DNA of 64,000 nt. Source: Candidatus Latescibacterota bacterium (GTDB lineage Bacteria > Latescibacterota > UBA2968 > UBA8231). The notes beneath the pieces are model-generated. The model made no database searches. It was given only the letters and a program-made list of their open reading frames with translations, and was not told the origin of the DNA. The DNA lies in the NCBI GenBank assembly GCA_965248265.1, contig CBDFJF010000001.1, forward strand, positions 544,001 to 608,000. Direction: 5' to 3'. Made by a program: the position numbers and the translations under genes. Of this stretch, positions 33,452 to 59,078 are shown piece after piece (within the stretch, counting starts at the first letter, position 1; each line of letters begins with the position of its first letter).

Positions 33452-34882
<1,431 letters not shown>

Positions 34883-35749: not shown

Positions 35750-35775
35750 CGGCTAGTAGGTCATCCCCCGGCAAT

Positions 35776-37302: not shown

Positions 37303-37317
37303 GTGTCGGTATCCTCT

Positions 37318-37860
37318 TTAGTGTTCGCCGAGCAGTCTTCGGTGCAGGCGCTGCAACTGCGCTTCAACGGTGCCGTCGAAGACCGTGTCTCCGACCGTGG
37401 CGATCAAACCACCGCGCATGGCGTCGTCGACGCTGACCTCGAGCCTTATCTCGCCGCCGAAGTACCCAGACAGCTTTTGCCGCAAGTGGTCGGTTTGACT
37501 CTGATCGAGCGCTGTGGCCGAACGCACGTGAGCCGTGGAGACCCCGGAGCGCTCATCAATGATCTGCAGGCAAGCCTGCGTGGTTTCCTGGAGCATCTCT
37601 GCGCGCCTACGCTGGACCAACAGGCGCATGAAATTCATCGCCAACGCCTCGACCCGCCCTTCAAACACCTTCTCAAGAGCGGCCTGCTTTGAATCAATAC
37701 TGACCAGTCGATTCTGCAGAAAGTCACACAGTTCGCTGGAGCCGTTGAGCGCCGCGTCGATCCCTTCGAGATCACGACGCGTATTATCCAGCGCACCGGT
37801 TTCCTCTGCTGCATCCAGCAGGGTTACGGCGTAACGTCTGACGACTTCGGGAATGTTCAT
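37318..37860 (-). CDS. atpH: F1 ATP synthase delta
   Basis: RRYA..L, NFMRLL, VD..MRGGL...VGD.VFDG; operon position. Confidence 0.95.
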   Translation of the reverse strand: MNIPEVVRRYAVTLLDAAEETGALDNTRRDLEGIDAALNGSSELCDFLQNRLVSIDSKQAALEKVFEGRVEALAMNFMRLLVQRRRAEMLQETTQACLQIIDERSGVSTAHVRSATALDQSQTDHLRQKLSGYFGGEIRLEVSVDDAMRGGLIATVGDTVFDGTVEAQLQRLHRRLLGEH

Positions 37861-38345
37861 GCTTCGGGAACCTGGGCGATCAGATCGTCCACCAGCTTGC
37901 GGTTGCTGTCAGCATCGATGTTGGCGTCGATAATGGCACCCGCCGCCTGCACGGCCAGGTCAGCGACTTCGCGTCGCAACTCGCCGATGGCGGCCGTCTT
38001 TTCACTCTCGATGGTACGCCGTGCCTGTTCCACGGTCTGCTGCGCTTCCGAGCGTGCCTCTTCGACAATCCCCTGACGCACCTTCTCCGCGGCCTCTCGG
38101 GCCTCGGCGATGATCTGCCGGGATTCAGCTTCAGCGCCGGCGAGCAACTTCTGATGCTCCTCCAGTGTTGACTGAGCGTCCTGGCGCGCGCGGTCAGCGC
38201 CTTCCAGCGCATCCCTGATGCGCGCCTCGCGTTCGTCCAGCGCGCCCAGCAACGGCTTCCAGACGGTGCGCTTCAGCACCAGCAGGACGACGACGAAAGT
38301 GACGATCGTCCAGACGATGAGTCCCGCGTGGGGGGTGAGTAACAT
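37857..38345 (-). CDS. atpF: Fo ATP synthase b
   Basis: GLIVWTIVTF...WKPL..ALDERE..I, coiled coil. Confidence 0.96.
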   Translation of the reverse strand: MLLTPHAGLIVWTIVTFVVVLLVLKRTVWKPLLGALDEREARIRDALEGADRARQDAQSTLEEHQKLLAGAEAESRQIIAEAREAAEKVRQGIVEEARSEAQQTVEQARRTIESEKTAAIGELRREVADLAVQAAGAIIDANIDADSNRKLVDDLIAQVPEA

Positions 38346-38408
38346 AGTCGTGTCTCTCCCTAGGTAGCTATCCGTGCCACTATGTCGTTACGCTTTCCTT
38401 CCAGACCT

Positions 38409-38455
38409 AGACGTGATCTGCCAGACGTGATCTGCCAGACGTGATCTGATAGACG
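38409..38455. repeat. 14-bp tandem repeat x3.4 in the atpE-atpF spacer
   Basis: AGACGTGATCTGCC AGACGTGATCTGCC AGACGTGATCTGAT AGACG. Confidence 0.9.
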
Positions 38456-38486
38456 CGAGCACACGACGTCGAGGTCGGACGAATCG

Positions 38487-38744
<258 letters not shown>

Positions 38745-38777
38745 TCATCACTGTCACCAACCAAACCGCCCACCGCC

Positions 38778-39599
38778 CTAGTGATCGGGATGAGCGGCCA
38801 TGCTGATGAACAGTGCCGAGAGCAGAGTAAAAATGAAGGCTTGGATGAAACCGATGAAAATCTCAAGCATGTAGATGGCTGCTGCGAAGGCGATGGAAAA
38901 CGGGGCCAGATAATAGCTCTTGAGCATTATGATCAGACCCAGAAAAACCAGTATCGCCACGTGTCCGGCGATCATGTTGGCGAACAGACGGATGGCCAGG
39001 GCGAACGGCTTGGACAACAGGCCCATGATTTCGATCGGAATCATGATCGGCAACAGCCAGGTAGGCATTCCAGACGGCACCAGGCTGCGACAGTAGCCGA
39101 CGAATCCGTTGTTGACGATGCCGCTGACCTGAGTGACCGTGAAGGTACACAGGGCCAGCGCCGCGGTAACGCTGATGTTGCCCGTTGCCGTGGCACTGTA
39201 GGGAAACAGGCCGATCAGATTGCAAAACAGGATGAAGAAGAAAACGGTGAGCAGGTACGGCATGTATTTGCGGCCGTCCTCGCCCATGATCGGGAGCACT
39301 ACCTCGTCACGGATGAAAAGGACCATCGCCTCGAACAGGTTGGCCAGCCCGAAGGGCACGGCTTTGGGCCTGCGGAAGGCTACGGTCAACAGCAAAATCA
39401 GCAGGCTGCTGGCCACCCACATCATCAGGACGTGTTTCGAGATGGATAAATCGATGCCGTAGATTGGAGCGAACTGCGGCAAGTTGATGTGCCCGTCGAC
39501 CCAGTTGTGGGCGTTGACGAAGGGCACGTCCAGCTGCTTGGAATCGAGGATGTGCCCGATGATATCTACTTGACCGTCTGACCCTGCGTCACCCGCCAT
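38778..39599 (-). CDS. atpB: Fo ATP synthase a
   Basis: FFILFCNLIGLFP, KPFALAIRLFANMIAGH, IQAFIFTLLS. Confidence 0.97.
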   Translation of the reverse strand: MAGDAGSDGQVDIIGHILDSKQLDVPFVNAHNWVDGHINLPQFAPIYGIDLSISKHVLMMWVASSLLILLLTVAFRRPKAVPFGLANLFEAMVLFIRDEVVLPIMGEDGRKYMPYLLTVFFFILFCNLIGLFPYSATATGNISVTAALALCTFTVTQVSGIVNNGFVGYCRSLVPSGMPTWLLPIMIPIEIMGLLSKPFALAIRLFANMIAGHVAILVFLGLIIMLKSYYLAPFSIAFAAAIYMLEIFIGFIQAFIFTLLSALFISMAAHPDH

Positions 39600-39630
39600 T
39601 CAATCACTCAGCCAATATCGTCAGTGTTAT

Positions 39631-39659
39631 CTATCAGTTGATCTTGCTATCAGTTGATC
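39631..39659. repeat. Direct repeat (13-mer x2, period 16) in the atpI-atpB spacer
   Basis: CTATCAGTTGATC at 39631 and 39647. Confidence 0.75.
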
Positions 39660-39697
39660 CGGTAGACGACTGATCGTCACCTACCAAACGTTCAAAA

Positions 39698-40033
39698 TTA
39701 TGACGCTTGATTGCTCTGGTCAACCCGAGCAGGATCGATCGGCTGTCGCCTCTCGCGCTCGTTGCGGCGCACGACCGCTACGATCTCGACGATCATAGCC
39801 AGGATGCAGGTCGTCCCCAGGCCGGCGACGAAATAGCCCGGATGGATTGGCGTCACCAGGAGCAGGATGGCGGAGGCGGCCGCCATCAGCACCAGCCGGA
39901 GCGCCATGCCTCCCAGAAACACCTTGACGAAAAGTTGCGGCCGGCTGTTCCAGGTCCACCGGATACTCAACCAAGCTATGGCCCCGTTGACGAGCGCCAG
40001 CCCGATACCACAGGCCAACCCTGCCCATATCAT
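39698..40033 (-). CDS. atpI: ATP synthase protein I-like membrane protein
   Basis: Four hydrophobic segments, GMALRL motif; ATGA overlap with upstream gene; precedes atpB. Confidence 0.75.
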   Translation of the reverse strand: MIWAGLACGIGLALVNGAIAWLSIRWTWNSRPQLFVKVFLGGMALRLVLMAAASAILLLVTPIHPGYFVAGLGTTCILAMIVEIVAVVRRNERERRQPIDPARVDQSNQAS

Positions 40034-40320
40034 TCTGTTTCCTCTCCTTTGGCTTGAGGGTCCTGGTTCGTCGCAGGCCCATCGCCGTCCTCGCTGTCTG
40101 GACGGGTCAGCATCCGGTAAAGATGGTAGAAGGCCGCCGTCGCCCCAAAGAGCATGCCGGCGATCAACAGTAAGGGAGATGTAGATAGCTTGTCGTCCAG
40201 CCACCATCCTCCGATGGTCGCGATGATGATGGTAACGGCAAACTGCAATCCCGCTCCCAGCAACAGGCCGGCCTGGGCCATGCCTGCCTGTTTCTTTGTC
40301 CGCTTGTCATCAGCGGTCAT
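40030..40320 (-). CDS. atpZ: AtpZ/AtpI family protein
   Basis: GLQFA...GGWWLDDKLSTSPLLLIAGMLFG. Confidence 0.85.
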   Translation of the reverse strand: MTADDKRTKKQAGMAQAGLLLGAGLQFAVTIIIATIGGWWLDDKLSTSPLLLIAGMLFGATAAFYHLYRMLTRPDSEDGDGPATNQDPQAKGEETE

Positions 40321-40339
40321 GGCTGCTTACCACTATTCC

Positions 40340-45197: not shown

Positions 45198-45509
45198 TTA
45201 GCCCTCGAACTCCGGCGATCGCTTGTCGAGATCGGTGTCACCACCGCGACGGTGGCGCAGGCACAGCAATGACAGCAGGACGACGGCTTGCCCTACACCG
45301 GCGGCCAACGTGATCAGGGCCATCACCTGGCCGGAATCGTCAGCATGAAAGTGTGCGAAGGCTGCGAGGGTGACGACGGCTCCCAACCCCATCAGCTGAA
45401 ACCCCAGGATGACGGCCAGAACGTTGCGCCGCAGGACGATGCCCGTTAGCCCGAGCCCGAACAGGAGCAAACCAAAAAGCGTAGTCACCTGCAGGATCGC
45501 CGCGCTCAT
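45198..45509 (-). CDS. nuoK: Divergent complex I subunit K
   Basis: LFGLGL.GIV.RRN, GQVMAL; 103 aa, 3 TM; operon position. Confidence 0.88.
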   Translation of the reverse strand: MSAAILQVTTLFGLLLFGLGLTGIVLRRNVLAVILGFQLMGLGAVVTLAAFAHFHADDSGQVMALITLAAGVGQAVVLLSLLCLRHRRGGDTDLDKRSPEFEG

Positions 45510-46093
45510 GGACCCTCCCCGGTACTGGCAGGATCATCTACCCGATTGGATTCGACAATCGCCAGCGTGGTGGCGAAAAGGACGAAGCCGATGACGATGA
45601 ATGACACCAAGTGTCTCCTCACCAGTAGACCGGTGAGTGACTCGCTATCGGCAACCACGCCATCGGCGACGATGGCGGCAGTGGTCTCCCCTTGGACGGC
45701 GACCGTTGGAGCTATCCCTGGAGTCGCCGCAATGACACCGAGCGCGACTACCAGGATTGCGGCCGCGCACAAGATCAGCCTTCGCCTCTTGGAATCCGAG
45801 GCGGCTCGCGGACCTTGCCGCGAGTGTCCCACGAGCGGAGTGCCCGATTCTTCTTGATTGACAACCATGTGACCTACGAGATAGACGGCGGCGATGACAC
45901 CACCCTGCATCAGGACTAGCCCGATGGCAACCAGTGGCGCATTCGCGAAGATCCCCACGATGCCGGCTGCGGCCAGGACCACCACGCCGAGAGCGAGAGC
46001 AGACCGAGTCACCGATCGACTGGTGGCGACGACGACGGCGGCGGCCACGGCGAGTGCTGCCAGTAACACGTACAGGACCAGACCGGAGATCAC
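45506..46093 (-). CDS. nuoJ: Highly divergent complex I subunit J
   Basis: Five hydrophobic segments, VV.TSRS.TRSAL.L, ANAPLVA; GTGA overlap with nuoH stop and ATGA overlap with nuoK. Confidence 0.78.
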   Translation of the reverse strand: MISGLVLYVLLAALAVAAAVVVATSRSVTRSALALGVVVLAAAGIVGIFANAPLVAIGLVLMQGGVIAAVYLVGHMVVNQEESGTPLVGHSRQGPRAASDSKRRRLILCAAAILVVALGVIAATPGIAPTVAVQGETTAAIVADGVVADSESLTGLLVRRHLVSFIVIGFVLFATTLAIVESNRVDDPASTGEGP

Positions 46094-47115
46094 GCGTTTG
46101 TCATCATTTTCAGGAGCCGCGAACCGACCGCTACCATCAGCAGATTGGCAAAAGCCAGCGGCAGCAGGTATTTCCAGCCGACGGTGGCTGCGCGCTCGAG
46201 TACCAGCGACGGCAGGCTCGAACGGACCCAGAGAAACAGCAGGACGACAGCGGCGGTTTTGATGACGGTTGCGCTGGCCTGCACATGCGGCACTTCCCCG
46301 TTGCCGACGAGTCCGGGAATGTGCCACCCCCCCAGGTACAGGGTGACGAGGAAGGCGCTGGCGGCTATCAGATGCACCCGCTCCGCCACCAGCATCAAGG
46401 CCAAGTGGCGGCCGCTGTAGAGGCTGCCGAGGCGGCCGCCTCTGGTCGGGTCTCGCTGGGTGAGTGGACGCCAGGGGATAATCTGCAGGAGGGCGGCGAA
46501 GCAGACGACGAAACCCAACGGTTGAACCATCAGGTTCCAGGCGAGGATGACGTGTCCGTCGATCGCTGTCTGGGCGGCGATGATCTGGTCAAAACGAGCT
46601 GTTCCGCCGGCCGTTATGACTCCGAAAACGGCGACCCCGAGCGCCAGGTAACAGCTCAGCTGGCGCGCCACCAGACGCAGTCCTCCGAAATCACGAAAGC
46701 CTCCTATTTGAGCGCGGGTTCCGGCGATCAGACCAACCTGGAGAGCGATGAAGCCCAGGGCCATGACGTAGACGACCCCCAGGCTGGTGTGCCCTCCCCA
46801 CGCCGCCAGCGCTGTCCAGAGCCCACCACCATCACTCTGGCAAAACGGAACCACGGCGAGGGCGGTGAACGAAATGGCCAACAACAGAGGGGCGGCCCAC
46901 TTGCCGCCAGCTCCAGCCGCGGCCCGTGGCGATCTCTTTGACGCCAGCTTGATCAGATCGGCTACGGGGCGCAATCCGAAACCCGCCCGCTGGCGCCTGC
47001 CCGGCGCGGTCCGGTACTCAGCGAGCATGATCGCCATGACTCCGATCGCCGTACATAACAGCAGCGCGCCGTTGGAGCCCAGCGCGTTGATGAGTGGAAG
47101 GTCCTGGAAGGCCAA
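46090..47115 (-). CDS. nuoH: Highly divergent complex I subunit H
   Basis: GLRPVADLIKL, GGLR..A.QLS, QPLGF, YSG...L...AE, TLYLGGW, KT...L.LW.R.SLP, GWK.LLPLAFANL. Confidence 0.87.
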   Translation of the reverse strand: MAFQDLPLINALGSNGALLLCTAIGVMAIMLAEYRTAPGRRQRAGFGLRPVADLIKLASKRSPRAAAGAGGKWAAPLLLAISFTALAVVPFCQSDGGGLWTALAAWGGHTSLGVVYVMALGFIALQVGLIAGTRAQIGGFRDFGGLRLVARQLSCYLALGVAVFGVITAGGTARFDQIIAAQTAIDGHVILAWNLMVQPLGFVVCFAALLQIIPWRPLTQRDPTRGGRLGSLYSGRHLALMLVAERVHLIAASAFLVTLYLGGWHIPGLVGNGEVPHVQASATVIKTAAVVLLFLWVRSSLPSLVLERAATVGWKYLLPLAFANLLMVAVGSRLLKMMTNA

Positions 47116-47116
47116 T

Positions 47117-48796
47117 TCAGTCGGTATCCGCCGGCCGCTGTCTCGACAGCCAGTCTCGTTTGTTGTGATCGTCAACGGCCAGAAAACCACGTCGTTGCAG
47201 AGCGGTGGACCATCCACCGCCGTAGGCCTGTGCGATACCTGCCGCACCGAGCCCCGCACCCGGGTCCCCCTGATTCTGATCGAGGACAGTCTCGGCTTCC
47301 GCTATGACGGAGTTCGGCGCCGCGAATCGAACCGCCACTCGTTTGAGAATCTCGATATCGTCCAGGCACCCGGGAGCGGGTCCAACGGCCTTTTGCAACC
47401 GCTGAAGGTGCCCGTCGGCGTTGGTCATGGTACCGGCTTTTTCTGGGAAACTGCATCCTGGCAGCACGACCCGCGCCAGGGCGGCCAGTTCGTCCTGCAG
47501 GATATCCAGGACGACCAGATTGTCGGCAACAGCACCCAGGGCGCTGAGCTCGATGTCGTCCGGCCGAACGCCCGGTCCCCCACCCACAACGAAGGCCGCA
47601 CCGATCAATCCCTCCTGCAGTGCTTCCACCATCTGATCCATCCCCAGCAAACTCTGGCCCAGCTCTGCCGCCACCCCTTTGATGCCATGCGAATTCGCCG
47701 CCTTGTCGCCTCGAATCGTGAATCCACTCGGGTAGATCGTGTCGCCTTCCGTAGCGAGGGACTGCCGCAAGGATATCAATTCGGTGTCCCAGCCTTGAGC
47801 AAGGCGAATCAACAGACGGGCTTCCTCGTTCGTCATCTGGCCGCCGAGTATGACTCCGATCTGCTGTCCCTGAGAGCGGCAGGCGGTAAAAGCGAGATGA
47901 ATGGCCTCGCACGCGTCCTCCCAAGATGCGACAACGTCTGCAACGCCATCAGCTGACTGGATCAGGGGATGCGTCAACCGCTCCGAACTGTGGACGTAGT
48001 GCCATCCGTGACGTCCATCATCGCACATCCAGTACTCGTTGACATCCATGTTCACGCGGGGCTTGAGTCTCTTCACCTGATCGCCGGCAACATCGATGCG
48101 GATGTTGCATCCGGAGGAACAGCCGGTGCAGATCGAGTCGACACCGCGCAATCTCCAGGCCGGCTGCAGCTGGAAACGCTTGTCGATCAGAGCACCGGCC
48201 GGACACAGATCCACGGTGTTGCCGGACAGCCGATTGTCCATCTTTGACCCGGGAAAGGTAGCGACTTCGAGGCGGTCACCTCGATCGAACATCGACAGCT
48301 CTTCCGTACCGGTGACCTCCGCGCAGAAACGGACGCAACGGGTACAATGGATGCATTTCCCCGGGTCTATGGCAACGTGATCTCCCAGATCCCGAATTTC
48401 ACTCGCGCCCTTTTCGGGAAGCACGTATGGACCGTCGCCGCCGTAGGCGAAGCTGAATTCCTGTAACTCGCACTCTCCCGAATTGTCGCACGATGGACAT
48501 TCCAATGGGTGCCGCACCAGCTGGAACTCAAGCGCTGTAGCTCGCGCCTGCCTTACGGCCTCCGATTCCGTGCGCACCACCATGCTGTCCTGTACCTGCG
48601 CATCGCACGCCGTCGTCAAACGCCAGCCGTCGTCGTCTCGCACCTCTATCGCACATAGCCGACACAGTGCCGGAGTAGACAGGGCCGGATGAAAACACAG
48701 ATGGGGGACGAAAATTTCAGCCTCGAGAGCGCCCATGAGCAGATTGGCCCCGTCCTCGATCTCCAGCGCTCTGCCGTCCCATGTTATTCGGGCCAT
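47117..48796 (-). CDS. nuoG: Complex I subunit G (short form, all Fe-S motifs present)
   Basis: PHLCFH..CRLC..TAC; HPLECPSCDNSGECELQ; CIHCTRCVRFC..DLCPAG; CTGCSSGC..MCDDG. Confidence 0.93.
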   Translation of the reverse strand: MARITWDGRALEIEDGANLLMGALEAEIFVPHLCFHPALSTPALCRLCAIEVRDDDGWRLTTACDAQVQDSMVVRTESEAVRQARATALEFQLVRHPLECPSCDNSGECELQEFSFAYGGDGPYVLPEKGASEIRDLGDHVAIDPGKCIHCTRCVRFCAEVTGTEELSMFDRGDRLEVATFPGSKMDNRLSGNTVDLCPAGALIDKRFQLQPAWRLRGVDSICTGCSSGCNIRIDVAGDQVKRLKPRVNMDVNEYWMCDDGRHGWHYVHSSERLTHPLIQSADGVADVVASWEDACEAIHLAFTACRSQGQQIGVILGGQMTNEEARLLIRLAQGWDTELISLRQSLATEGDTIYPSGFTIRGDKAANSHGIKGVAAELGQSLLGMDQMVEALQEGLIGAAFVVGGGPGVRPDDIELSALGAVADNLVVLDILQDELAALARVVLPGCSFPEKAGTMTNADGHLQRLQKAVGPAPGCLDDIEILKRVAVRFAAPNSVIAEAETVLDQNQGDPGAGLGAAGIAQAYGGGWSTALQRRGFLAVDDHNKRDWLSRQRPADTD

Positions 48797-48797
48797 G

Positions 48798-50156
48798 TTA
48801 GTAACGCACGCTTACGCTATCCGGCACCCTGAACCCGGGGTCTTTCAGCTCCTGCATTGGGCAGGCTCCTGCCGTAGCGTGCGCCTCGAATTCGGCTCTG
48901 AACGAATGGAAGAAATCCTGCACGGTCCAAGCGAAGGCGCTACCGAATCCACACAGCGCCGTGGTCTGCTCAGGCCGGAGCCGGGGGGCGATCTGACGCG
49001 CCACGGATTCGATCAGCTTCACCTCGTCGGCGTCACCCCCCTTACCCTCCTCCAGTCGTTGCAGCAACTGGAGGATCCAACTCGAGCCCTCCCTGCACGG
49101 CGCGCACTGCCCGCACGATTCCACCGCATAGAAGCGCATCATCTGGATCGCCGTGTCCACCATGCAGGTGGTATCATCCAGGACGATGACCGCGCCGTTG
49201 CCGAAGGCTCCATCGATCGGTCCTGCGCCGGGTATCGCCCATTGTTGGGGGTCGAGATCGACATCGAGCTGCTGTGGCTGCAGAACCGTCGACAGTGTGC
49301 CACCGACGATGACCGCCTTGAGCGAGCGACCATCGGGTACACCACCGGCGTAGTCGTCTACCAACTCCCTCAGCGTCGCCTCGCCCAAAGCCAGTTCGTA
49401 CAAACCTGGACGACGCACGTGCCCGCTGACACAAAACACGCACGTACCTGGATAGGCATGCGTGCCGATGGTCCTGAACTCGACCGCACCGGCTGACAGA
49501 ATGTCAGGTAGATAGGCCAGGGTGCCGACGTTGTGGACAACGGCCGGCTCGCCAAAGAGGGTGCGTGGGGACGACGCCGGTGCCGGCTCAGGTCGTCCCC
49601 CTTCGAGCCCCTGTAGCAAGGCCGATTCCTCGGCGGCAATATGGGCACCACCCCCTGGATGCACGTAGACATCCAGGTCGAAACCACTGCCGGCAATATC
49701 ACGCCCCAGCCAGTTGGCTTTGTAGGCCTCGTCTATTGCCTGGTTGATGACGGTGGTTGGACGGGCAAGTTCACCTCTCACGCATAGATAGGCGACCCGT
49801 GCGCCAAGAGCTCGGGCGGCGATGAGTATACCTTCGAGAAGGCGATGAGGTACGCGCTCCATGAGCTTGCGGTCACGAAACAGACCCGGATCGGCATCGT
49901 AGGCATTGACACACAGGTAGGGCGGCGGTGCCGACGTCATCGCCGGCTGCGCCGACCGCCGCCACTTATCCGCGACCGGCTCCCAACCGCCGCCACGACC
50001 GCGCAGACCACTGGCGGCGACTTCCTCCAGCAGCTGCTGTTGGGTCATGGCCAACGCCTTGGCCGCTCCCCGATAGCCGCCGTGGGTGAGGTAGGCCTGG
50101 ATGCCCTCGATGTCGGGGATCTCGATATTCTTGAGGAGCAGTCTGTGCTCAGCCAT
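48798..50156 (-). CDS. nuoF: Complex I subunit F with altered flavin/NADH pocket
   Basis: SGLRGRGG, DR.LME..PH.LLEG, EE.ALL..LEG, SGHVRRPG.YE, ESCGQCAPCREG, LCGFG. Confidence 0.92.
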   Translation of the reverse strand: MAEHRLLLKNIEIPDIEGIQAYLTHGGYRGAAKALAMTQQQLLEEVAASGLRGRGGGWEPVADKWRRSAQPAMTSAPPPYLCVNAYDADPGLFRDRKLMERVPHRLLEGILIAARALGARVAYLCVRGELARPTTVINQAIDEAYKANWLGRDIAGSGFDLDVYVHPGGGAHIAAEESALLQGLEGGRPEPAPASSPRTLFGEPAVVHNVGTLAYLPDILSAGAVEFRTIGTHAYPGTCVFCVSGHVRRPGLYELALGEATLRELVDDYAGGVPDGRSLKAVIVGGTLSTVLQPQQLDVDLDPQQWAIPGAGPIDGAFGNGAVIVLDDTTCMVDTAIQMMRFYAVESCGQCAPCREGSSWILQLLQRLEEGKGGDADEVKLIESVARQIAPRLRPEQTTALCGFGSAFAWTVQDFFHSFRAEFEAHATAGACPMQELKDPGFRVPDSVSVRY

Positions 50157-50160
50157 GGCC

Positions 50161-50667
50161 TCAGTCCTCGATACGCTCTACGGTACGCTCTAGTAATTGA
50201 GTCAGTTTCTCGAGACTCAGGCTTTCATGCAGCTCGTCGTCTACGAGCATCACCGGAGCCGTGCTGCAGGATGCCAGACACGGAACACGTTCGAGGGTGA
50301 AATGGCCGTCCAGGGCCGTGTCCCCCGGCTCAATGCCGAGCGCGACACGCAGTTGGCCCAGAACCGTTTCAGCACCCATCAAGCGGCAGGAGAGGCCATC
50401 GCACACCCGCAGCCGGCTTCTACCAGCCGGCTTGTCAGTCCTCAGCAGGGGATAGAAACTGGCCACGCCGGCAGCTCGAACTGGAGGTATTGCCAACAGG
50501 TCGGCCACGTGGCCGATCACAGACGGTGAGCACCAGCCCCACTCTCGCTGTGCCAGCAGCAGGACCGGAAGAAGCGCACCGCCAGCCTCGGGATAGCGCT
50601 CCCGGATGCGCTGGTACTCGGCCTCCGTGTCCGGACCGAAAGCCAATTTGTCGATGGTCTGCTCCAT
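50161..50667 (-). CDS. nuoE: Complex I subunit E
   Basis: RYP....LLPVL..AQ..WGW, VASFY, VCDGLSC, CLASCSTAP. Confidence 0.93.
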   Translation of the reverse strand: MEQTIDKLAFGPDTEAEYQRIRERYPEAGGALLPVLLLAQREWGWCSPSVIGHVADLLAIPPVRAAGVASFYPLLRTDKPAGRSRLRVCDGLSCRLMGAETVLGQLRVALGIEPGDTALDGHFTLERVPCLASCSTAPVMLVDDELHESLSLEKLTQLLERTVERIED

Positions 50668-52319
50668 CACCGGTCCATCTCCGCAGGCACCACATTGAGA
50701 CTGCACAGAGCCTGGCGCGCTTGTGCCATCGGCAGATCGGCGACCAGGCCTCCGGCGACCTGAAAGTTCAACAACGAAGGCGAGCGCAGGTGGAGCCGGT
50801 AGGGCCGGTCGGTGCCGTCTGCGCACAAGAACACGCCGAGCTCGCCATTCGGACTCTCGGTCGCTTGGTAACACTGGGCGCCCGCCGGCAGGCGAAGGCC
50901 ATGCCCCTCCGTCCACAACTGCATGTGGCGGATCATTACCTCCACGCGTTCGCGCACTTGCTCGGACGTGCCCGGAAAAACGCGGGCGTCCTCGGTGCGC
51001 CAGGCACCGGTCGGCATCGACCGCAAAGCCCGTTCGATGAGGCCGGTACTCTCCACCATCTCCTCCATGCGCACCCGGCAGCGATCCAGCGCGTCGCCGT
51101 TCGAGCCAACGGGCACCTCGAAATCCAGCTCGCCATACGCCAGGTACGGCGTCGTCTTGCGCAGATCCGACTCCGTGCCGCAGGCACGCTGGACCGGACC
51201 ACTCAAACCCCATTCGGCGGCTTCATGGGCGCTCAGCGCTGCCACTCCGTCGACCAGGTCACGCCACAGGCGATTGCCCATGAGCTGCTTGTGCAACCGT
51301 GCCACCGCAACTCGTATCGACCGCGACAAGGCCAGCGCGCAGTTCATGAAATCATCCGGAAAATCGGCTGCCTGTCCCCCGATAGCCAGTAATCCGGTAC
51401 CGGTACCCACACCTCTCAACCGACCCATCGTCTCCAGTACTGCAGCACGCAGCTGCATGGCTTGTCGCCAAACTCTGTCGGCGCCGGCCGTCTCGGTTTG
51501 GATCGACAGCCAAGCCAGGTGTCCCGCGAGGCGGGAAAGCTCGGCGATGACGACACGCTGAAAGTTGCCTCTCGGTGGCACCTCGATTCCCAGCATCGCC
51601 TCGACCGCCAGTGCGAGGGTCAAGCTGGCGGCGTGAGGGGACTGGTCGTTCAGGCGTTCGCACACAACCATGTTCTGTATACAAGTCAACGACTCGGAGA
51701 GCTTCTCGATGCCACTGTGGGCAAATCCAGGCACCGGAGCAGCACGCACCACCCGGCCGGCCACCACCTCGAGGCGCATGCGCAGTGTCGGTATCGGCGC
51801 GACCAGAGCCGCGGTGTCCGGGCCAGTTGGCACAGGATTACCGGTTTCGCCCTCACCGAGCAAGGGATAGCGCTTGCGCAGCGGGTGAACGGAGGAGGGG
51901 GAGTGCAGGATCAGGGCTCGGGTCGTGGATCTGCCGGTAAAGCGGACCCCGAACATCTCCGCCACCTCACGCTCCTGCCAGTCTGCGCCCGGAAACAGAT
52001 CGGTGACGCTGGCCAGCGTGGTTTCTTCTGGATCGAAATCAGCACTCAATTGCAAACACGCAAAGGGTGTCTGGACTGACCGCAACTGGTAGACTATCCG
52101 CAGAGGCGCCGCCTCACCGGCGAGAGCGGACAGATCGACTGCAGTCATATCTGCGAGGGTGTAGCTTCCGTCCGTCCTCAGCGAGGTGAGCACCTCGTGC
52201 ACGGCATCCGCTTCCAGTACCAGCAATGTGCGTCCAGCAACTTCACGGATCTCGGCCGTCGGAAAGTTGACATGCAAGGTGGACAGCACGGTGTCGGCCT
52301 CGGCGAGTGTTTCAGCCAT
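50667..52319 (-). CDS. nuoCD: Fused, divergent complex I subunit C/D
   Basis: C part: D.TAVD, ADWQEREVAEMFGVRF.G, HPLRKRYPL. D part: H.GIEK, AELSRL..HL, GLSGP..RA.G...DLRK..PY..Y, ESPNGELG, PYR...RSPS, EMDR. ATG 52319 overlaps nuoA. Confidence 0.92.
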   Translation of the reverse strand: MAETLAEADTVLSTLHVNFPTAEIREVAGRTLLVLEADAVHEVLTSLRTDGSYTLADMTAVDLSALAGEAAPLRIVYQLRSVQTPFACLQLSADFDPEETTLASVTDLFPGADWQEREVAEMFGVRFTGRSTTRALILHSPSSVHPLRKRYPLLGEGETGNPVPTGPDTAALVAPIPTLRMRLEVVAGRVVRAAPVPGFAHSGIEKLSESLTCIQNMVVCERLNDQSPHAASLTLALAVEAMLGIEVPPRGNFQRVVIAELSRLAGHLAWLSIQTETAGADRVWRQAMQLRAAVLETMGRLRGVGTGTGLLAIGGQAADFPDDFMNCALALSRSIRVAVARLHKQLMGNRLWRDLVDGVAALSAHEAAEWGLSGPVQRACGTESDLRKTTPYLAYGELDFEVPVGSNGDALDRCRVRMEEMVESTGLIERALRSMPTGAWRTEDARVFPGTSEQVRERVEVMIRHMQLWTEGHGLRLPAGAQCYQATESPNGELGVFLCADGTDRPYRLHLRSPSLLNFQVAGGLVADLPMAQARQALCSLNVVPAEMDR

Positions 52320-52713
52320 CGGAATCCGTGACGGGCGAGCGCTCTTCCCAGTCGAAGGCCCGTCGACGGGCAGCGTACACGAAGGCGCAGAGCAGGACGA
52401 TGATGAAAACGGCAACGACACCGAGCACGGCCGCATCACCATCCAGCAACTGATTGAACCCGAGAGCCCATGGCAACAGCAGGACGAGCCCTGCTTGAAA
52501 AACCGCTGCGATGAGCGCGATTCGGTAGAAGGGCAGGATTTGAGCCGGTGTGGACTGCGTTTGAGAGTCCCGCGCGGACGCCGTGTCATCGGCTCTATCG
52601 CGGCTGAGCAAGCGTGCCCCGAACAAGAAAGCCGCCGCAAACAGAAGGATTGCGACGGCTGAGATCACGGCAGCTGGAATTTCGATTGCGACCTCGTAGG
52701 CGGGAAGAGCCAC
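52312..52713 (-). CDS. nuoA: Highly divergent complex I subunit A
   Basis: Three TM; FYRIAL..VF....LLPWA, FVYA.RRRAFDWE; first gene of the nuo run. Confidence 0.82.
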   Translation of the reverse strand: MALPAYEVAIEIPAAVISAVAILLFAAAFLFGARLLSRDRADDTASARDSQTQSTPAQILPFYRIALIAAVFQAGLVLLLPWALGFNQLLDGDAAVLGVVAVFIIVLLCAFVYAARRRAFDWEERSPVTDSDG

Positions 52714-52789
52714 TGGTGCCGGGTCAACCGTCTCGCCGACACTCGGTCACGACTGTGTCAGGCTGTAATGTGGGGAACGGCCATGGAAC

Positions 52790-53038: not shown

Positions 53039-53060
53039 CGACCCGCTCCCTGCTATTACC

Positions 53061-54299
53061 CTAACCGAAGTCGTCGAAGCGGATCATCTCTTCTTCCACT
53101 CCGAGCTCGTCCAGCATGTTCATCACTGCTTGCAGCATCATCGGTGGACCGCACAGATAGTACTCGATGTCTTCCGGAGCCGCGTGGGAGCTCAGATAGT
53201 GGTCGAGGACGACCTGGTGAATGAAACCCTGGTACCCGGTCCAGTTGTCTTCTGGCAGAGGCTCCGACATGGCCACATGCCACGAGAAGTTCGGGAACTC
53301 CTCGGCGATAGCCTCGAAGTGGTCCTCGTAGAACAATTCCTTGGAGGATCGAGCCCCGTACCAATACGACACCTTGCGACCGGTCCTCAAGGTGTGGAAC
53401 AGGTGAAAAATGTGCGACCGCAACGGTGCCATGCCAGCGCCGCCACCGATGTAGACCATCTCGCGCTCGGTTTCCTGGATGAAGAACTCCCCGTAGGGAC
53501 CGGAAATGGTAGCCTTGTCTCCAGCCTTCAGATTGAACACGAAGGAAGACACGATGCCGGGGTTGACCTTCATCCAGCCGCCGATGCTCGGATCGAATGG
53601 CGGCGTGGCGATACGGATGTTGAGCATGACGATGTTGCCCTCGGCCGGGTGATTCGCCATCGAGTAGGCACGAAAAACCGTATCGGCGTTCACCGTTCGC
53701 AGATCCCACACCTTGAAACGGTCCCAGTCGCCGTGAAAACGCTCGTCGACTTCGAAATCCCTGAAGGAGCACTGGAAGGACGGTACTTCTATTTGGATGA
53801 AGCCGCCGGATTCGAAATTCAGGTTCTCGCCTTCTGGTAATTTGAGGACGAGTTCCTTGATAAAGGTTGCGACGTTCTTATTGGAGATGACCTCGCATTC
53901 CCAGCGTTTGACCGAGAACACCTCGGGCGGCACTTCGATCTTCAAGCTCTCCTTGACGGCGACCTGACATGAGAGCCGATCCCCTTCGCGGGCTTCACGC
54001 TTGGTGATCTGTTCCAGCTCCGTGGCCAGAATCTCACCGCCCCCCTCGTGTATCTTCACGACACACTGGCCACAGGTACCGCCCCCACCGCATGCCGATG
54101 AAACGAAAAGCTGGTTATCTGCCAGCACGTTGAGCAGCTTGCCGCCCGCTGGCGTGGTCAGGGTGCGTTCATCGTTGATGACGATCTCGACGTCGCCGCT
54201 GGCAACCAGCTTGGAACGGGCTGCCAGGATGACGCCCACCAGCGCCAGCACGACCATCGTGAACATGCCGACACCGGCGGTTATTTCCACGGCCATCAT
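53061..54299 (-). CDS. nqrF: Na+-NQR subunit F
   Basis: [40 protein letters not shown]. Confidence 0.98.
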
Positions 54300-54907
54300 A
54301 GTTGAATACCCGAGAAGGCCATGAAGGCCATCGCCATCAGGCCAACGGTCATGAAGGTAATCCCCAGACCCCGCAGGCCGGGGGGAACGTCACTGTAGCG
54401 CATCTTCTCGCGGATACCTGCCAACGCCACGAGGGCGAGGGCCCAACCGATGCCCGACCCCAGGCCGTAGACGACGCTCTCTCCGAAGTCGTAGTCGCGT
54501 TCCACCATGAACAGCGATCCACCCAGGATGGCGCAGTTGACGGTGATCAAGGGCAGAAAAATGCCCAACGCGTTGTAGAGCTTGGGAACGTACTTGTCCA
54601 GGAACATCTCGAGAATCTGGACGCTGGCCGCGATAACGCCGATGTAGCTGATGAGACCGACGAAGGTCAGGTCGACCCCTTCCAGGCCCAGCCATACCAG
54701 CGCGTTTTCTTTGAGCAGATAGTTGTAGACGAGGTTGTTGATCGGCACGGTCAGTGTCTGTACCACGATTACAGCCACACCGAGCCCGAAGGCGGTGGAA
54801 ACTCGCTTGGAAATGGCCAGGAAGGTGCACATGCCCAGGAAGAAGGCGAGGGCGATGTTCTCGACGAAGATCGCCTTGACGAAGAGATTCAGATAGGCCT
54901 CAAACAT
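54296..54907 (-). CDS. nqrE: Na+-NQR subunit E
   Basis: [38 protein letters not shown]. Confidence 0.98.
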
Positions 54908-54911
54908 CGGC

Positions 54912-55535
54912 TCAAGCCTCCTCTTCGATCTGTTCGGTCTTGAAGGAACGCAGCACCCAGATGAAACCGCCGATTATGAAGAAGGCACTGGGAGGCAGCA
55001 GCATCAATCCGTTGGGGACGTACCAGCCGCCCTCGGTGTTGAGGGCCAGAATCTCCAGACCGAAGAAATTGCCGGCGCCGAACAGCTCCCGCAACACTCC
55101 CACGCACAGCAGTATGACACTGTAGCCGAGGGCGTTGCCCAGGCCGTCCAGCATGCTCATGCCGACACCATTCTTCATGGCAAATGCTTCGGCGCGCCCC
55201 ATGACGATGCAGTTGGTGATGATCAGCCCGACGAACACGGACAGCTGCTTGCTGATATCGAAGGCGTAAGCCCGCAGAAACTGGTCCACGATGATGACGA
55301 GTGAGGCGATGATCGTCATCTGCATGATCATGCGGATGTTCGACGGCATGTGATTGCGAATCAGACTGACGGCGCCGTTGCTGAACACGAGTACGAAGAT
55401 GACCGCCAGACACATGGTCACGGCCGTTTCCATCTTGCTGGTCACCGCCAGCGCCGAACAGATTCCGAGAATCTGCAGAGCGATCGGGTTGTCGTCGAGA
55501 ACGGGACCGAGGAGAGTTTCCCGTGCCTTACCCAT
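54912..55535 (-). CDS. nqrD: Na+-NQR subunit D
   Basis: [34 protein letters not shown]. Confidence 0.98.
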
Positions 55536-55547
55536 TGGGTTTTCCCG

Positions 55548-55572
55548 TGTTTGATACCATGTTTGATACCAT
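55548..55572. repeat. 12-bp tandem repeat x2 in the nqrC-nqrD spacer
   Basis: TGTTTGATACCA TGTTTGATACCA T. Confidence 0.75.
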
Positions 55573-55575
55573 TGT

Positions 55576-56349
55576 CTATCCGGCTCCTTGCGTCTTCAGT
55601 TTGGCCAGGTAAGGACCGTAGCCGTCTGCACTCAACCAGTAACGCAGCATGTAGTGAACACCGCGTGATGTAATCGTGGCCCCGGAAAGGCCGTCCACCT
55701 TGAATTCGGATCCCTTGTCGGCGGGATTGACGCGGCCCTTGATGACTGAAATTTTCGCCTTCCCCGTGGCATCAAACGCCTGCTTGCCGTTCCACAACGC
55801 CTTCCACGTGGGATTGTCGACCTCGCCGCCCAGACCGGGAGTCTCTGCGTGCTCGTAGAAGACGAGGCCCTTGATCGTGGTCAGATCAGCGGCATCGAGA
55901 GCCAGGAATCCGTAGAGGGTCGACCATAGCCCCTTGCCATGAACGGGAAGGATGACTTTGTCGAGCCGGTCACCCTTGCTCACGATATAGACGGACGCGT
56001 TTTTAGCGCGCCGTTTGATTCCAGCCCGCTCCAAGTCCGAGGTCTCCTGACTCGTGGCCGGGTCAGCAGCCGCCTTGCGCGTGTCGTAGGTCGACGCGTC
56101 GATATCCTCAGCATACTGCCCCGTAGACAGGTCGACGACCTTGGGCTCGATGCTCTGGTAGGCGGCGTCGATGTCGATTCCCTCTTCGTACAGTCCGGCG
56201 GCGGTGAGGATGTTGCGTTTTTTATCGAGCGCCTTGTTGATATTCTGCGTTGGCCGCAGCACTACCGCCGCACTCGACACCAGCACCGAGCAGGCAACGC
56301 AAAGCAGAAAGGCGACCGTGAAGGTCTTGGTGATCGTATCTCGCGGCAC
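55576..56349 (-). CDS. nqrC: Na+-NQR subunit C
   Basis: [17 protein letters not shown], flavinylation motif [10 protein letters not shown]. Confidence 0.97.
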
Positions 56350-56364
56350 AGGAATCGTCCCCTG

Positions 56365-57594
56365 TTAGGCGGCGGTGCGGACAAGCCGCCGTTTGATGTT
56401 CGCCTGGACGACGAAATAGTCGAAGACCGGGGCGAACACGTTGCCGAACAAAATTGCCAGCATCACACCCTCGGGAAAAGCCGGGTTGACGACGCGAATC
56501 AGGGCCGTCATGATGCCGATGACACCTCCGTAAATCCACTTACCGCTGTTGGTGAACGAGGCAGATACCGGGTCCGTCGCCATGAAAACGCACCCGAAGG
56601 CGAAACCACCCAGCACCATGTGCCACAGTGCGCTCATACCGAACATCGGGTTTGTCGAACTGTCGACAGTGGCCAACAGGGCTGAGAGCACAAACGTAGT
56701 CAATGTCATACTCAGCATGATGCGCCATGATCCAAGGCCGGTCGCGATCAGAATGAAGGCTCCGATCAAACACGCCAGCACCGAAGTCTCTCCCATGGAT
56801 CCTGGTTGGAGACCGAGAAAACCATCCCACAGGGTTACCGCGCTACCCGAAACCGATCCGCTGTCCATCGCGCCCATGCCCTCGGCCGCGACCAGGCCCA
56901 ACGGCGTGGCGTGAGAGAATCCATCGACGGCGACCCAAACCTTGTCACCGGTGATCTCAGCGGGATAAGCGAAATATAGAAATGCGCGAGCGGTTAGCGC
57001 TGGATTGAGAAAATTCTTGCCCGTTCCCCCGAAAATCTCCTTGCCGATGACGACACCGAAACTGATCCCAACAGCCACCTGCCACAGCGGTATTGTGGGC
57101 GGGAGCGTCAGCGGAAACAGCATACCGGTAACCAGGAAACCCTCGTTGATCTCGTGGCGGCGTATGATCGAAAACAGAGCTTCCCAGAAGCCGCCGGCCA
57201 TCTGACAAACGAGGAACACAGGTATGAAATAGAGGGCACCGTGGAAGATGTTGGCGAAGAAACTGTTGGGACTGTAGCCGATCTCCAGCGCGTCGATGAT
57301 GACGCCGCGCCAGCCCCCGGCCGTTTCCGCTCCGAGACTGGCCAGCGCCAGATTGGTCTGGTAGCCGGTGTTCCACATGGCCATGAAAATGCAAGGCACC
57401 AATGCCCCCACGACCATGATCATGGTACGCTTGAGGTCTAGGCTGTCGCGTACGTGCGAAGCACCCTTGGTGACGTCGGCCGGCGTGTACAGGAAGGTGT
57501 CTATCATCTCGAACGCGGGGTACAACCGTTCGAGCGGCGCGCCTTTCTTGAACGCCGGCTCGGCCTGATCCAACATCTGCCTTAGCAGCTTCAT
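56365..57594 (-). CDS. nqrB: Na+-NQR subunit B
   Basis: [61 protein letters not shown]; TGATG coupling with nqrA. Confidence 0.98.
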
Positions 57595-58958
57595 CAGCCT
57601 TCTTTCTCGAGAATGTCCAGACTGGAGCGCAACAGTGGGCCGTACTCGGTCTTCCCTGGACAGACGAAGGTGCACAGACCCAGATCCTCTTCATCCAGTT
57701 CCAGGCAACCCAGATCCTGGGCCCTGTCGACGTCGCCGACGATGAGCGCCCGCAAAAGGAAGGTGGGCAGAATATCGAGAGGCATGACCGTTTCGTAGGA
57801 TCCGATCGGTACCATGGCCCTGACGCTGCCTTCCGTCGAAGTCGTGAAATCAAACCTCTTGCCGTTGCCGAGAAACTTGGAGAGGAAGACGCTCTTCACC
57901 GAGAACTTGTCCAGACCCGGATCCTGCCAGCCCAGAAACTCGCGCTGCGTCCCCTCGCTGACCGCACCCACCTGTAGATGGTATCGACCCAGGAAATCAC
58001 CCGAACCTTCGGCCGTCCTCCCTGACAGTGCAGGGCCACTGATCAAACGGTTGTGACCGGCCTCCACCTGCCCGGCTGCAAGTTCGCTGATGCAGGCCCC
58101 TACCCGGGTGCGCAACAGCCTCGGCCTGTTGACGACCGGCCCGCTCAGTGCGATGACGCGCTCGGTCCAGATGCTGCCGGTGGTCAGCAACTTACCGATG
58201 GCGATGGTGTCCTGGTAGTTGATCCAGAAAACGGTCTTGTTGACGCCTGCTGCTTCCAGAAAATGGATGTGAGTGCCGGCCAGTCCCGCGGGATGAGGAC
58301 CACCGAATTCCGCGATGGAGATGTTGGGACCCTCCGGCTCCGGCATACCTGAGCCCGGCGCCTTGCAGACAAAGAGCTCGCCCTCGGTGAGCTTCGCCAG
58401 TGCGCGTACGCCAGTGGCGAAGTCCTCTTCATGGCCGGCGGCGGCGATGCTGGGATCAGCTGCCAGCGGATTTGTGTCCATGGCAGTGACGAAGATGGCC
58501 CGCGGAGCCGTGTCTGGTGTCGGCACCTTGCTGAAGGGACGTGCCCGCAACGCCGTCCACAATCCCGATTCGACCAACAGGTCCTTGATCTGGTCGGCCG
58601 TGAGATCTGCAGGTGCGGCCGGAATGTCGAAAGTCTGCGCCCTCTCTTGACTGGGTAGGCTCAGTTCAACGACAACCGACAGCAGTGCCCGCTTGGCGCC
58701 GCGATTGATCGCCACCACTTTGCCGCCACCCGGCGAGGTGAACTTGACTCCCGGGGTGCGCTTGTCTTCGAACAGGAGCTGACCGGTTGCGACATCATCA
58801 CCTTCCTGAACGGCCATGGTCGGTCGGAGCCCGTGATGATCGGGGCCGACGACGGCGACCTGCGTCACGGCGGGCGCATCATCGATGGCCTGGGCGCAGT
58901 CTCCGGAAATTGGCAGATCAAGACCCTTCTTCAGGGAAAAGGATCGACGCTCACCCAT
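57594..58958 (-). CDS. nqrA: Na+-NQR subunit A
   Basis: [51 protein letters not shown]. Confidence 0.98.
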
Positions 58959-59078
58959 ACGTGACTGTCAGACCTCCACAGATCGCCTCGCGGACACGGT
59001 ATCCAGCCCAGGAACCATGGCGGTTGCTATTATTGTCGGAAAGAGAAAGATTGGAATCGCTAAATCGCACTGAACGCT

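Follow-up and report, generated by a model that had tools for sequence, protein, structure and literature searches.

What is left for a respiratory complex I to do when its whole chain of iron-sulfur (Fe-S) clusters is kept and the residues that handle NADH, quinone and pumped protons are not? The question is raised by a nuo-like gene cluster in a 64,000-nucleotide stretch of DNA from a Candidatus Latescibacterota bacterium (assembly GCA_965248265.1, contig CBDFJF010000001.1, positions 544,001 to 608,000; the whole stretch is called the window below, and its positions count from its first letter). The cluster comprises 11 genes (A, CD, E, F, G, H, J, K, L, M, N) and lies between the operons for the Na+-translocating NADH:quinone reductase (Na+-NQR, nqr) and the F-type ATP synthase (atp). 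The encoded enzyme has lost its NADH and flavin mononucleotide (FMN) residues, its quinone-site residues and most of its proton-transfer residues, so ordinary NADH:quinone proton pumping is no longer possible. We lean towards reading NuoE, NuoF and NuoG as subunits of a derived 14-subunit complex I paralogue that is complete in subunits and Fe-S ligands and is no NADH:quinone proton pump.

Few machines in biology are as conserved as complex I, and a variant of it is usually characterized by the module that it lacks. Here all modules and the whole Fe-S chain are present and under selection, and what has gone are the NADH, quinone and pumping residues regarded as essential in textbooks (of the antiporter lysines, most). 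The window enzyme shares with the canonical 14-subunit Nuo/Nqo enzymes (T. thermophilus, E. coli, M. smegmatis and the NuoEF of A. aeolicus) the subunit families, the NuoE-F-G-H...N gene order and the ligands of nine clusters, but differs from them in its unlinked nuoB and nuoI, its replaced NADH/FMN, quinone and pumping residues, and its scores below the family cut-offs.

Fe-S ligands and the NADH/FMN pocket

A sequence-only reading of this locus had held that the motifs for clusters N1a, N3, N1b, N5, N4 and N7 are complete, and all 24 of the 24 ligands are indeed present in the window. They are C89, C94, C130 and C134 in NuoE (168 residues, 50161..50667, minus strand; a 2Fe-2S cluster, N1a); C348, C351, C354 and C402 in NuoF (452 residues, 48798..50156, minus; N3), which never vary in alignments A1 and A2; and, in a NuoG of the short form (559 residues, 47117..48796, minus), C34, C45, C48 and C64 for N1b, H96, C100, C103 and C109 for N5, C148, C151, C154 and C198 for N4, and C223, C226, C230 and C258 for N7. 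The cluster names are those that we take to apply by homology. NuoE matches PF01257 with 139.7 bits and TIGR01958 with 135.5 bits, below the cut-off of 142.4; NuoG carries the domains Fer2_4, NADH-G_4Fe-4S_3, Fer4_Nqo3 and Molybdop_Fe4S4 and reaches 366.7 bits with TIGR01973, below the cut-off of 470.05.

Per-site conservation across orthologues bears out the claim of a complete wire. The derived set consists of 20 to 21 orthologues (the window, four close metagenome contigs, and loci of g4, g5, g11, g12, g17 and g18), which are mutually related, so that counts among them are of non-independent events; it is compared with 8 sister-family operons and with the 11-subunit complex I-like enzyme that the same genome encodes elsewhere. 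All four NuoE ligands are found in 21/21 derived-type orthologues (84/84 cells) and all four NuoF ligands in 20/20 (80/80 cells), and 319 of 320 NuoG ligand cells are kept, the sole miss being an Arg for the first N4 Cys in L130. Retention in 20/20 extends to the His ligand of N5 and to N7, a cluster off the pathway.

The same reading had described the five FMN/NADH motifs of NuoF as rewritten, which they are: LRGRGGGWEPVADKW, CVNAYDADPG, GGGAHIAAEES and VVHNVGT are present, an alignment gap falls at KPPFPA, and of the canonical pocket motifs GAGFPTGxKWxF, NADESEPG, GAGAYICGEE, KPPFP and NNVET none (0/5) is intact. The domain order is as expected of the family (PF01512, residues 46-217, 101 bits; SLBB, 240-293; PF10589, 335-426, 84.3 bits), and the protein aligns end to end, with E values of 1e-86 to 1e-72, to the solved NuoF chains of M. 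smegmatis (8e9g_F) and A. aeolicus (9fii_B/6hl2_B), against which the same differences appear over the full length. The NuoF equivalog model TIGR01959 gives it 378.7 bits against a cut-off of 558.65, and the other two NuoF models also score it below their cut-offs. In A. aeolicus numbering, taken from the alignment to the solved chains, G70 is replaced by W, F71 by E, T73 by V, G74 by A and F79 by R; D94-E95-S96-E97 reads Y-D-A-D; Y180, C182 and G183 are H, A and A; K202-P-P-Y/F is deleted; and N219 and E222 are H and G. Most of these pocket residues are given here the roles that we take them to have in NuoF. D94-E97 and E184 belong to the substrate pocket according to PMC6560083.

The loss extends beyond the window. 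Among the 20 derived orthologues, F71, F79, D94, C182, N219 and E222 are retained in none (0/20), and retention is partial at Y180 (7/20), E184 (10/20) and N220 (10/20), whereas the 8 sister-family NuoFs all retain the pocket residues except E222, which is Gln in 8/8. Erosion is graded: the sister type shows two changes, g12 still has NESEPG, YIAGEET and PPF, and the window lineage has lost nearly everything. An alignment of 68 canonical NuoFs has 149 columns with an invariance of 95% or more. Of these, 71 persist in 90% or more of 43 derived NuoFs and 38 in less than half; the lost columns concentrate in the five pocket motifs, most of them with high entropy.

Does this rewritten pocket serve one new donor or cofactor? 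Such an enzyme would keep the six-cluster wire of NuoE, NuoF and NuoG, with a NuoF pocket re-specified for ferredoxin, flavodoxin, an NqrF-like partner or another flavin or nucleotide, and would otherwise remain respiratory. We consider this unlikely. In its favor, no genes of the cluster are more constrained than those of NuoF and NuoE (ratio of nonsynonymous to synonymous substitution rates [dN/dS], 0.09); some motif changes are fixed across the 43 derived NuoFs (Gly to Trp58 in 43/43, Lys to Arg94 in 41, Glu to Gly211 in 39, Gly to Ala62 in 38); and a C-terminal tail, VP[DE]S[VI]xVR[FY] (in the window, ...FRVPDSVSVRY), is conserved in the derived clade and found only there. Nor are the rewritten motifs hypervariable within single lineages, where 19/61 motif columns vary versus 163/391 other columns (Fisher p = 0.13). 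The same columns in canonical NuoFs are strongly set apart (24/61 vary versus 324/391 elsewhere, p = 6e-12); being ordinary in the derived proteins but special in the canonical ones, they indicate that the constraint of the FMN/NADH site is gone and that of a packed core remains. Against a re-specified pocket, no new consensus has arisen at the key positions: entropy is 2.4 to 3.3 bits at F71, F79, D94 and the positions of the PPF loop in the 43 derived NuoFs, the Trp is followed in the 20 derived orthologues by R (10), Y (4), E (2), H (2), K (1) or Q (1), and N, L, Y, S and T all occur at the D94 position, depending on the genus. Residues that differ by genus in this way argue against one newly specified cofactor. 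Trp58 also occurs in sister enzymes that retain the other NADH/FMN residues and is thus no part of a re-specification, the cluster holds no candidate partner gene, and the quinone-site and pumping residues are lost too (see below), meaning that the rest of the enzyme is not working as usual. From these patterns we infer that the change in NuoF would be a loss of NADH/FMN specificity rather than the gain of one defined cofactor site.

That NuoF still belongs to an NAD(P)H dehydrogenase, with an unusual way of binding flavin and nucleotide, is a most improbable alternative. Some of the site does persist, namely RGRGG, the Lys/Arg-Trp pair, E95 (18/20) and E97 (16/20), with the GEE pair in about half, and the fold signature is intact in domains and in full-length alignment to the solved chains. 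On the other hand, F71, F79, D94, C182 and N219 are kept in 0/20, the K-P-P-F loop is deleted or unrecognizable in the window, and the quinone site downstream is gone as well. The genome also provides an internal control: its second NuoF-like gene, a NuoE-F fusion on contig C2 (P0121), keeps 5/5 canonical motifs and matches PF01512 with 152.6 bits versus 101 for the window NuoF. This fusion (567 residues) is followed by a NuoG-like Fe-S protein in a 384-residue open reading frame (ORF) (G000 C2:2984902-2989122; in L001, 1480-3183 and 313-1467, minus), the whole probably being a soluble NAD(P)H-linked dehydrogenase or a hydrogenase-type module, and it has a counterpart in nearly every genome of the class.

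Quinone site, proton-transfer residues and unlinked subunits

The catalytic residues at the other end of the wire have fared no better. NuoD is fused to NuoC in a protein of 550 residues (50667..52319, minus, ATG at 52319; PF00329 and PF00346), and its NCBIfam score is 292.7 bits against a cut-off of 360. The GPQHPxTHG loop with His-38 is deleted in the window and intact in 0/20 derived orthologues versus 8/8 sister sequences. Tyr-87 is Asp in the window (ERLNDQSP); the derived orthologues keep the Tyr in 3/20 and have Glu in 12 and Asp in 3, the window included, whereas the sister sequences keep it in 8/8. The column for Tyr-87 was fixed by the 49-residue spacing after the His, a spacing checked in 8/8 sister sequences, and the mapping of the functional residues of NuoD and of the antiporter subunits as a whole was checked by inter-residue spacings.

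The membrane arm shows the same loss. In NuoK (103 residues, 45198..45509, minus; PF00420, 61.7 bits) both membrane glutamates are Gln in the window (FQLM, GVGQAV) and Gln or Gly in four full-length derived proteins; a truncated fifth (L139) has Gln for the first Glu, and both Glu are present in 6/6 references. The acids of the loop between transmembrane helices (TM) 5 and 6 and of the E-channel in NuoH (E159, E208, E218, E230 and others) are lost in 6/6. This NuoH-like gene is listed as an ORF at 46090..47259 (minus), with its true start probably at ~47100; it scores 121 bits with PF00146, versus 384 for the other NuoH of the genome, and 102.5 in NCBIfam, where the cut-off is 305. The antiporter-like subunits NuoL (43359-45197), NuoM (41752 to ~43350) and NuoN (40340 to ~41750), all minus, match PF00361 with 76.4, 51.9 and 182.8 bits. 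NuoN has lost the TM8 Lys in 5/5 and has Arg for the TM12 Lys in 5/5; NuoL has Arg for the TM7 Lys in 4/4 and has lost the TM12 Lys in 4/4; and NuoM has lost the TM8 Lys in 4/4. The individual replacements in the window are K230 to Arg and K399 to Gln in NuoL, E190 to Gln, K302 to Leu and E449 to Ala in NuoM, and K213 to Arg, K243 to Thr and K388 to Arg in NuoN. The functional importance of His-38 and Tyr-87 (Thermus numbering), of Glu-32 and Glu-67, and of the Lys/Glu pairs is set out in PMC5938582. At these residues NuoD, NuoH and NuoK of the 11-subunit enzyme of the same genome are canonical. Its NuoM (G000 C1:258564-260195) has Leu at the position of the sister TM7 Lys and keeps the TM8 Lys and the TM12 Glu. 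One idea for the membrane arm, that it is a Na+/H+ antiporter working between NQR and ATP synthase, was dropped as the leading one because the Lys and Glu residues shared with such antiporters are the very ones lost. Two further subunits belong to the cluster: the NuoA-like protein (133 residues, 52312..52713, minus) is very divergent and scores 37.8 to 38.9 bits with PF00507, versus 102.5 for the other NuoA of the genome, and the NuoJ-like gene (ORF as listed 45506..46327, minus, with homology starting at ~46090) scores 34.7 bits with PF00499.

How can an enzyme without nuoB and nuoI be called complete? Neither gene is in the cluster, which leaves no space between A and CD or between H and J. 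A search of the whole genome found each gene twice. One nuoB and one nuoI belong to a separate canonical operon for the 11-subunit enzyme (A, B, C, D, H, I, J, K, L, M, N; no E, F or G) at C1:251973-261629, with NuoB at 218.9 bits and NuoH at 384. The others stand alone. The lone NuoB-like gene (G000 C2:3819245-3819673, 125 bits) directly follows an apbC/mrp-type gene, with dnaK-dnaJ upstream, and four further genomes, from three genera, show the arrangement dnaJ-apbC-nuoB-prmA-like, with dnaK and an rsmE-like gene also where the stretch reaches; its N2 ligands are kept as CC/C/C, or as CxC/C/C in g12. The lone NuoI-like gene (C2:3326499-3326933, 75 bits) directly follows rny, an order shared with three class-level relatives, whose NuoI scores 144 to 146 bits, and its Cys ligands are kept 8/8 in 10/10 derived-type sequences. 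Both genes come and go with the cluster: among the 31 genomes of g12, the cluster is found in G080, G084 and G095, the NuoB-like gene in these and G091, and the NuoI-like gene in these and G085, and the other 26 have neither lone gene. The 14 core subunit families are therefore encoded, by 11 genes in the cluster and the unlinked B and I, which share synteny and co-occur, and ligands for nine clusters are present (N3, N1b, N4, N5, N6a, N6b, N2, N1a and N7), with exceptions among the relatives in L130 and g12.

Subunit sharing with the 11-subunit operon, whether by borrowing its NuoB and NuoI or by lending it NuoEFG, was considered and rejected, since cluster-bearing genomes of g5 and g12 show a single NuoB, in the apbC context, and thus no dependence on that operon. 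The gene in front of the lone nuoB would encode an Fe-S carrier ATPase of the apbC/mrp type (G000 C2:3818214-3819673 for the pair); in eukaryotes, its relative Ind1/NUBPL supplies complex I with clusters.

Complex I relatives that do not oxidize NADH are not new. The complex I of Campylobacter and Helicobacter is fed by flavodoxin instead of NADH; unrelated proteins stand in for NuoE and NuoF, and the remainder is a normal pump. The likeness to the window enzyme is an input end that does not use NADH; the difference is that the window enzyme keeps NuoE and NuoF homologues with their clusters and loses its quinone and pumping residues. Eleven-subunit complex I-like enzymes without an N-module, such as the NDH-1 of cyanobacteria and chloroplasts, are found in many bacteria (see the abstracts of PMC3144371 and PMC11238625). 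These too, including the one encoded at C1:251973-261629, are complex I relatives that do not oxidize NADH through NuoF, but they have no NuoEFG, and their quinone and pumping residues are retained, whereas the window enzyme has an intact NuoEFG and loses those residues. A full-text literature search, provisional and with subscription journals and supplements outside its scope, returned no nuo operon with a degenerate NuoF pocket and no nuo cluster between nqr and atp.

Selection, distribution and origin of the cluster

With so many residues lost, is the operon simply dying, its genes pseudogenes in the making that have not yet been interrupted? Several features fit such a decay. The distribution is patchy (the cluster is absent from 28/31 g12 and 7/8 g11 genomes), erosion is progressive and lineage-specific, the nuo-like proteins each match the right Pfam family yet score below the NCBIfam equivalog cut-off, NuoF branches are ~2.2 times as long as those of the sister clade, and dN/dS is higher in g18 (0.31 to 0.39). 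Nevertheless, none of the 11 cluster ORFs in the window is interrupted, and 20 relatives have full-length E, F, G and CD. Comparison with L139, a contig of 81% identity, gives dN/dS values of 0.089 (F), 0.090 (E), 0.139 (G), 0.155 (CD), 0.18 (H), 0.17 (K), 0.28 (A) and 0.39 (J), beside 0.026 for nqrE and 0.038 for nqrF; dS is saturated (>1) in several of the comparisons made. Two closer contigs, with unsaturated dS of 0.2 to 0.3, give 0.146 (CD), 0.17 (E), 0.13 (G), 0.29 (H) and 0.33 (J). Over the window lineage NuoF stays at 0.083 to 0.089 and NuoG at 0.12 to 0.14, and a g12 pair gives 0.10 to 0.25 over the cluster genes tested, with L, M and N at 0.16 to 0.25. Values of 0.09 to 0.39 mean that the nuo-like genes are not pseudogenes, as judged from their codons. 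Moreover, normal-looking sister operons have dN/dS of 0.07 to 0.14 (CD, E, F, G, H), so that the peripheral arm of the window (0.09 to 0.17) is about as constrained as that of a working complex I. A dying operon is thus hard to square with a dN/dS far below 1 in three separate lineages, with ligand cells kept at 319/320, 84/84 and 80/80, and with unlinked nuoB and nuoI genes that are kept and lost together with the cluster, and we regard it as very unlikely.

These figures also settle how far the sequence-only reading reached. Its impression that NuoG is less eroded than the membrane arm is borne out, the peripheral arm being the tighter (H, 0.18 to 0.29; J, 0.33 to 0.39). Its central claim, that the wire is under selection while the nucleotide site has changed, stands in so far as the ligands are conserved, NuoF, NuoE and NuoG are under purifying selection and the pocket is no longer of the NADH/FMN type. 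It was too narrow in placing the change at the nucleotide site: nuoB and nuoI are unlinked, and the quinone site, NuoK, NuoH and the antiporter residues are altered too. In two relatives, single gene matches are split over two frames, that of nuoH in G080 (L127 8011-8962; L127 holds ambiguous bases) and that of nuoL in G025 (L132 15023-16637); these could be frameshifts or assembly errors.

The distribution of the cluster was surveyed in 132 genomes of the class. In 18 of the 76 genomes of the window's family, the derived NuoF lies 2.6 to 3.0 kb downstream of nqrF on the same strand, and in at least 18 genomes, from five genera, all the genes are uninterrupted and evolve under purifying selection. 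The cluster is always located between nqr and atp: the order nqr, nuo-like, atp is seen in relatives' loci L125, L126, L127, L130 and L136, and L138, which ends inside NuoG, shows nqr-nuo only. This constancy invites the explanation that the assembled complex transfers no electrons and serves as a structural body, a scaffold or assembly partner for Na+-NQR or ATP synthase, with its ligands kept for folding. The position between nqr and atp, fixed in 18 genomes, is consistent with that, as are the tight junctions between the genes, which suggest co-translation, the loss of the defining residues at each catalytic and coupling station tested, and the lack of a conserved new entry or exit pocket among the sites compared. 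However, constraint is strongest at the tip formed by NuoE and NuoF, the part most distant from any membrane partner, and the off-pathway N7 and the N5 His are kept in 20/20. Cluster-free genomes keep nqr and atp adjacent and intact (in G092 and G067 of the same family, nqrF is followed directly by atpI-atpB), which means that neither operon needs the cluster. Our full-text search found no precedent for such a role, and we know of no complex I kept as a purely structural body. We consider a structural body without electron transfer somewhat unlikely.

Where did the derived enzyme come from? The NuoF sequences fall into three groups: canonical (GAGFPTG), Trp type (GAWFPTG, in the sister families) and derived. 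The Trp type is carried by named records titled Candidatus Latescibacterota (L032, L065, P0038); a contig scan with NuoF alignment A1 returned mostly canonical NuoFs, with L015, L032 and L065 useful among the 80 loci kept. In a FastTree phylogeny the derived NuoFs are monophyletic and group with the Trp type, on branches ~2.2 times longer (1.30 versus 0.58 substitutions per site from the shared node), where the Trp and the C-terminal tail themselves had served in part to define the two groups and no weight is placed on the support value of the derived node, read after re-rooting. The sister Trp-type complex I shares with the window enzyme the Gly-to-Trp change, two insertions in NuoF, the short NuoG, the NuoCD fusion and the position of nuoI after rny. 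It differs in keeping the quinone-site and pumping residues and, except for E222 to Gln, the NADH/FMN residues; its NuoH scores ~420 bits; and it does not lie beside nqr, occurs in genomes without NQR and has no ...SVSVRF tail.

Na+-NQR catalyzes the NADH:quinone reaction in the same membrane, and its genes lie directly upstream, although it belongs to an unrelated enzyme family. NQR is present in 65/75 genomes of the window's family, in 0/25 of f2 + f3, in 24/24 of g27 + g31 (family f4) and in 0/7 of g26 + g28-30. The Trp-type NuoF is present in 2/3 genomes of f2, in 21/22 of f3 and in 6/6 of g28-30, and was not found in g27 and g31; the 22nd f3 genome (G008, 80% complete) yields only a ~235-bit match of the second NuoF-like gene. 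Outside the window's family, NQR and Trp-type complex I are thus mutually exclusive, and this complementary presence with a normal Trp-type enzyme makes Na+-NQR the likely functional replacement of complex I. An ancestral NADH-dependent enzyme, such as the sister families without NQR keep, would have been made redundant once NQR carried NADH oxidation, and the redundant complex I would have been deleted in most relatives and remodeled in the window's lineage. Two other arrangements were seen in the survey. In the window's family, g15 (NQR in 1/5) has an ordinary 14-gene nuo operon with a Gly-type NuoF and nuoB and nuoI in place (L260, G114:C147). A g31 genome, with NQR and no Trp-type complex I, has antiporter-like genes with weak NuoL/NuoN-like matches ~5.6 to 9.5 kb downstream of nqrF (L248 4211-8157), which may be an Mrp-type system.

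What, then, might the remodeled enzyme do? The likeliest of the roles considered, quite possible if short of probable, is that an assembled, cluster-bearing complex passes electrons between partners other than NADH and quinone, without pumping ions. A bolder and rather doubtful suggestion is that of a pseudo-complex I: assembled and Fe-S loaded, it would have shed NADH binding, quinone chemistry and proton pumping, and would have been kept for long by selection, in its fixed place between the Na+-NQR and ATP synthase operons, for a new, non-respiratory job. One possibility is that such a pseudo-complex I conducts electrons between new sites of entry and exit, the marks of which would be the acidic residue in place of the quinone Tyr (15/20) and the NuoF tail; another is that it acts as a redox-sensing or organizing partner of the sodium-based respiratory chain.

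Several observations weigh against a derived electron-carrying paralogue. A new entry or exit pocket conserved across genera was not found, the pocket residues being genus-specific, and a pocket so variable fits a scaffold as well as a conduit. The Cys ligands may be retained only for folding and are no proof of electron flow. The constraint left in the pocket region may leave room for a lineage-specific ligand, and the acidic residue at the old Tyr-87 site (15/20) and the fixed Trp58, Arg94 and Gly211 could be new sites rather than decay. The cluster, lost from most of the family, is dispensable. Finally, dN/dS in the close g18 pair reaches 0.31 to 0.39, and dS is saturated in several of the comparisons. 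We nonetheless retain the derived 14-subunit paralogue that no longer pumps as our preferred reading. If the complex is made, it shows non-respiratory uses of the Fe-S and membrane arms, or else a natural experiment in decay after a takeover by a sodium pump. The graded series within one class, from the normal sister enzyme through the partly eroded g12 to the rewritten window enzyme, could help to separate the residues needed for assembly from those needed for catalysis.

Gene order and flanking operons

The nqrABCDEF operon (53061..58958, minus) lies directly upstream of the nuo-like cluster, with a spacing of 348 bp between nqrF and the cluster. It consists of nqrA (57594-58958), nqrB (56365-57675), nqrC (55576-56349), nqrD (54912-55535), nqrE (54296-54907) and nqrF (53061-54299), and all 6 of its 6 genes pass the NCBIfam equivalog cut-offs (nqrF, 638 bits versus 295; nqrA, 646 versus 505). 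Within the cluster the junctions are tight: the ATG of NuoE overlaps the stop of NuoCD, the gap between E and F is 4 bases and that between F and G is 1 base. The G+C content at third codon positions is comparable in the nuo-like genes (0.68 to 0.76) and their neighbors (0.72 to 0.78).

A scan of 39500-59400 found promoter-like and terminator-like sites to be no commoner than in shuffled controls, and an Rfam search of 30000-60000 gave no match. Among the 14 sequencing runs listed for 45000-54900 none is of RNA; four of them, all from one sample, cover nearly the whole stretch. Among the sites seen, which show no excess over shuffled sequence, are a terminator-like hairpin just past nqrF (52978-52998, minus) and a promoter-like site upstream of nqrA (59209-59237, minus), with TTGACA, 17 bases and TAGGAT.

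The F-type ATP synthase operon (33452..40207, minus; Pfam matches) lies directly downstream and comprises an atpI-like gene (39698-40207), atpB (38778-39599), atpE (38487-38708), atpF (37857-38345), atpH (37318-37860), atpA (35776-37302), atpG (34883-35749) and atpD (33452-34849). The spacer between atpE and atpF holds a perfect 14-bp tandem repeat of AGACGTGATCTGCC in 2.9 copies (38409-38448). The c subunit (38487-38708, minus; 73 residues, PF00137) has its carboxylate in ...AALVEGVAL, a Glu without a following Ser or Thr. By the criterion of a Ser or Thr after the Glu, which we take to tell rotor types apart, it looks like a proton-type rotor, which is notable beside a sodium-pumping NQR.

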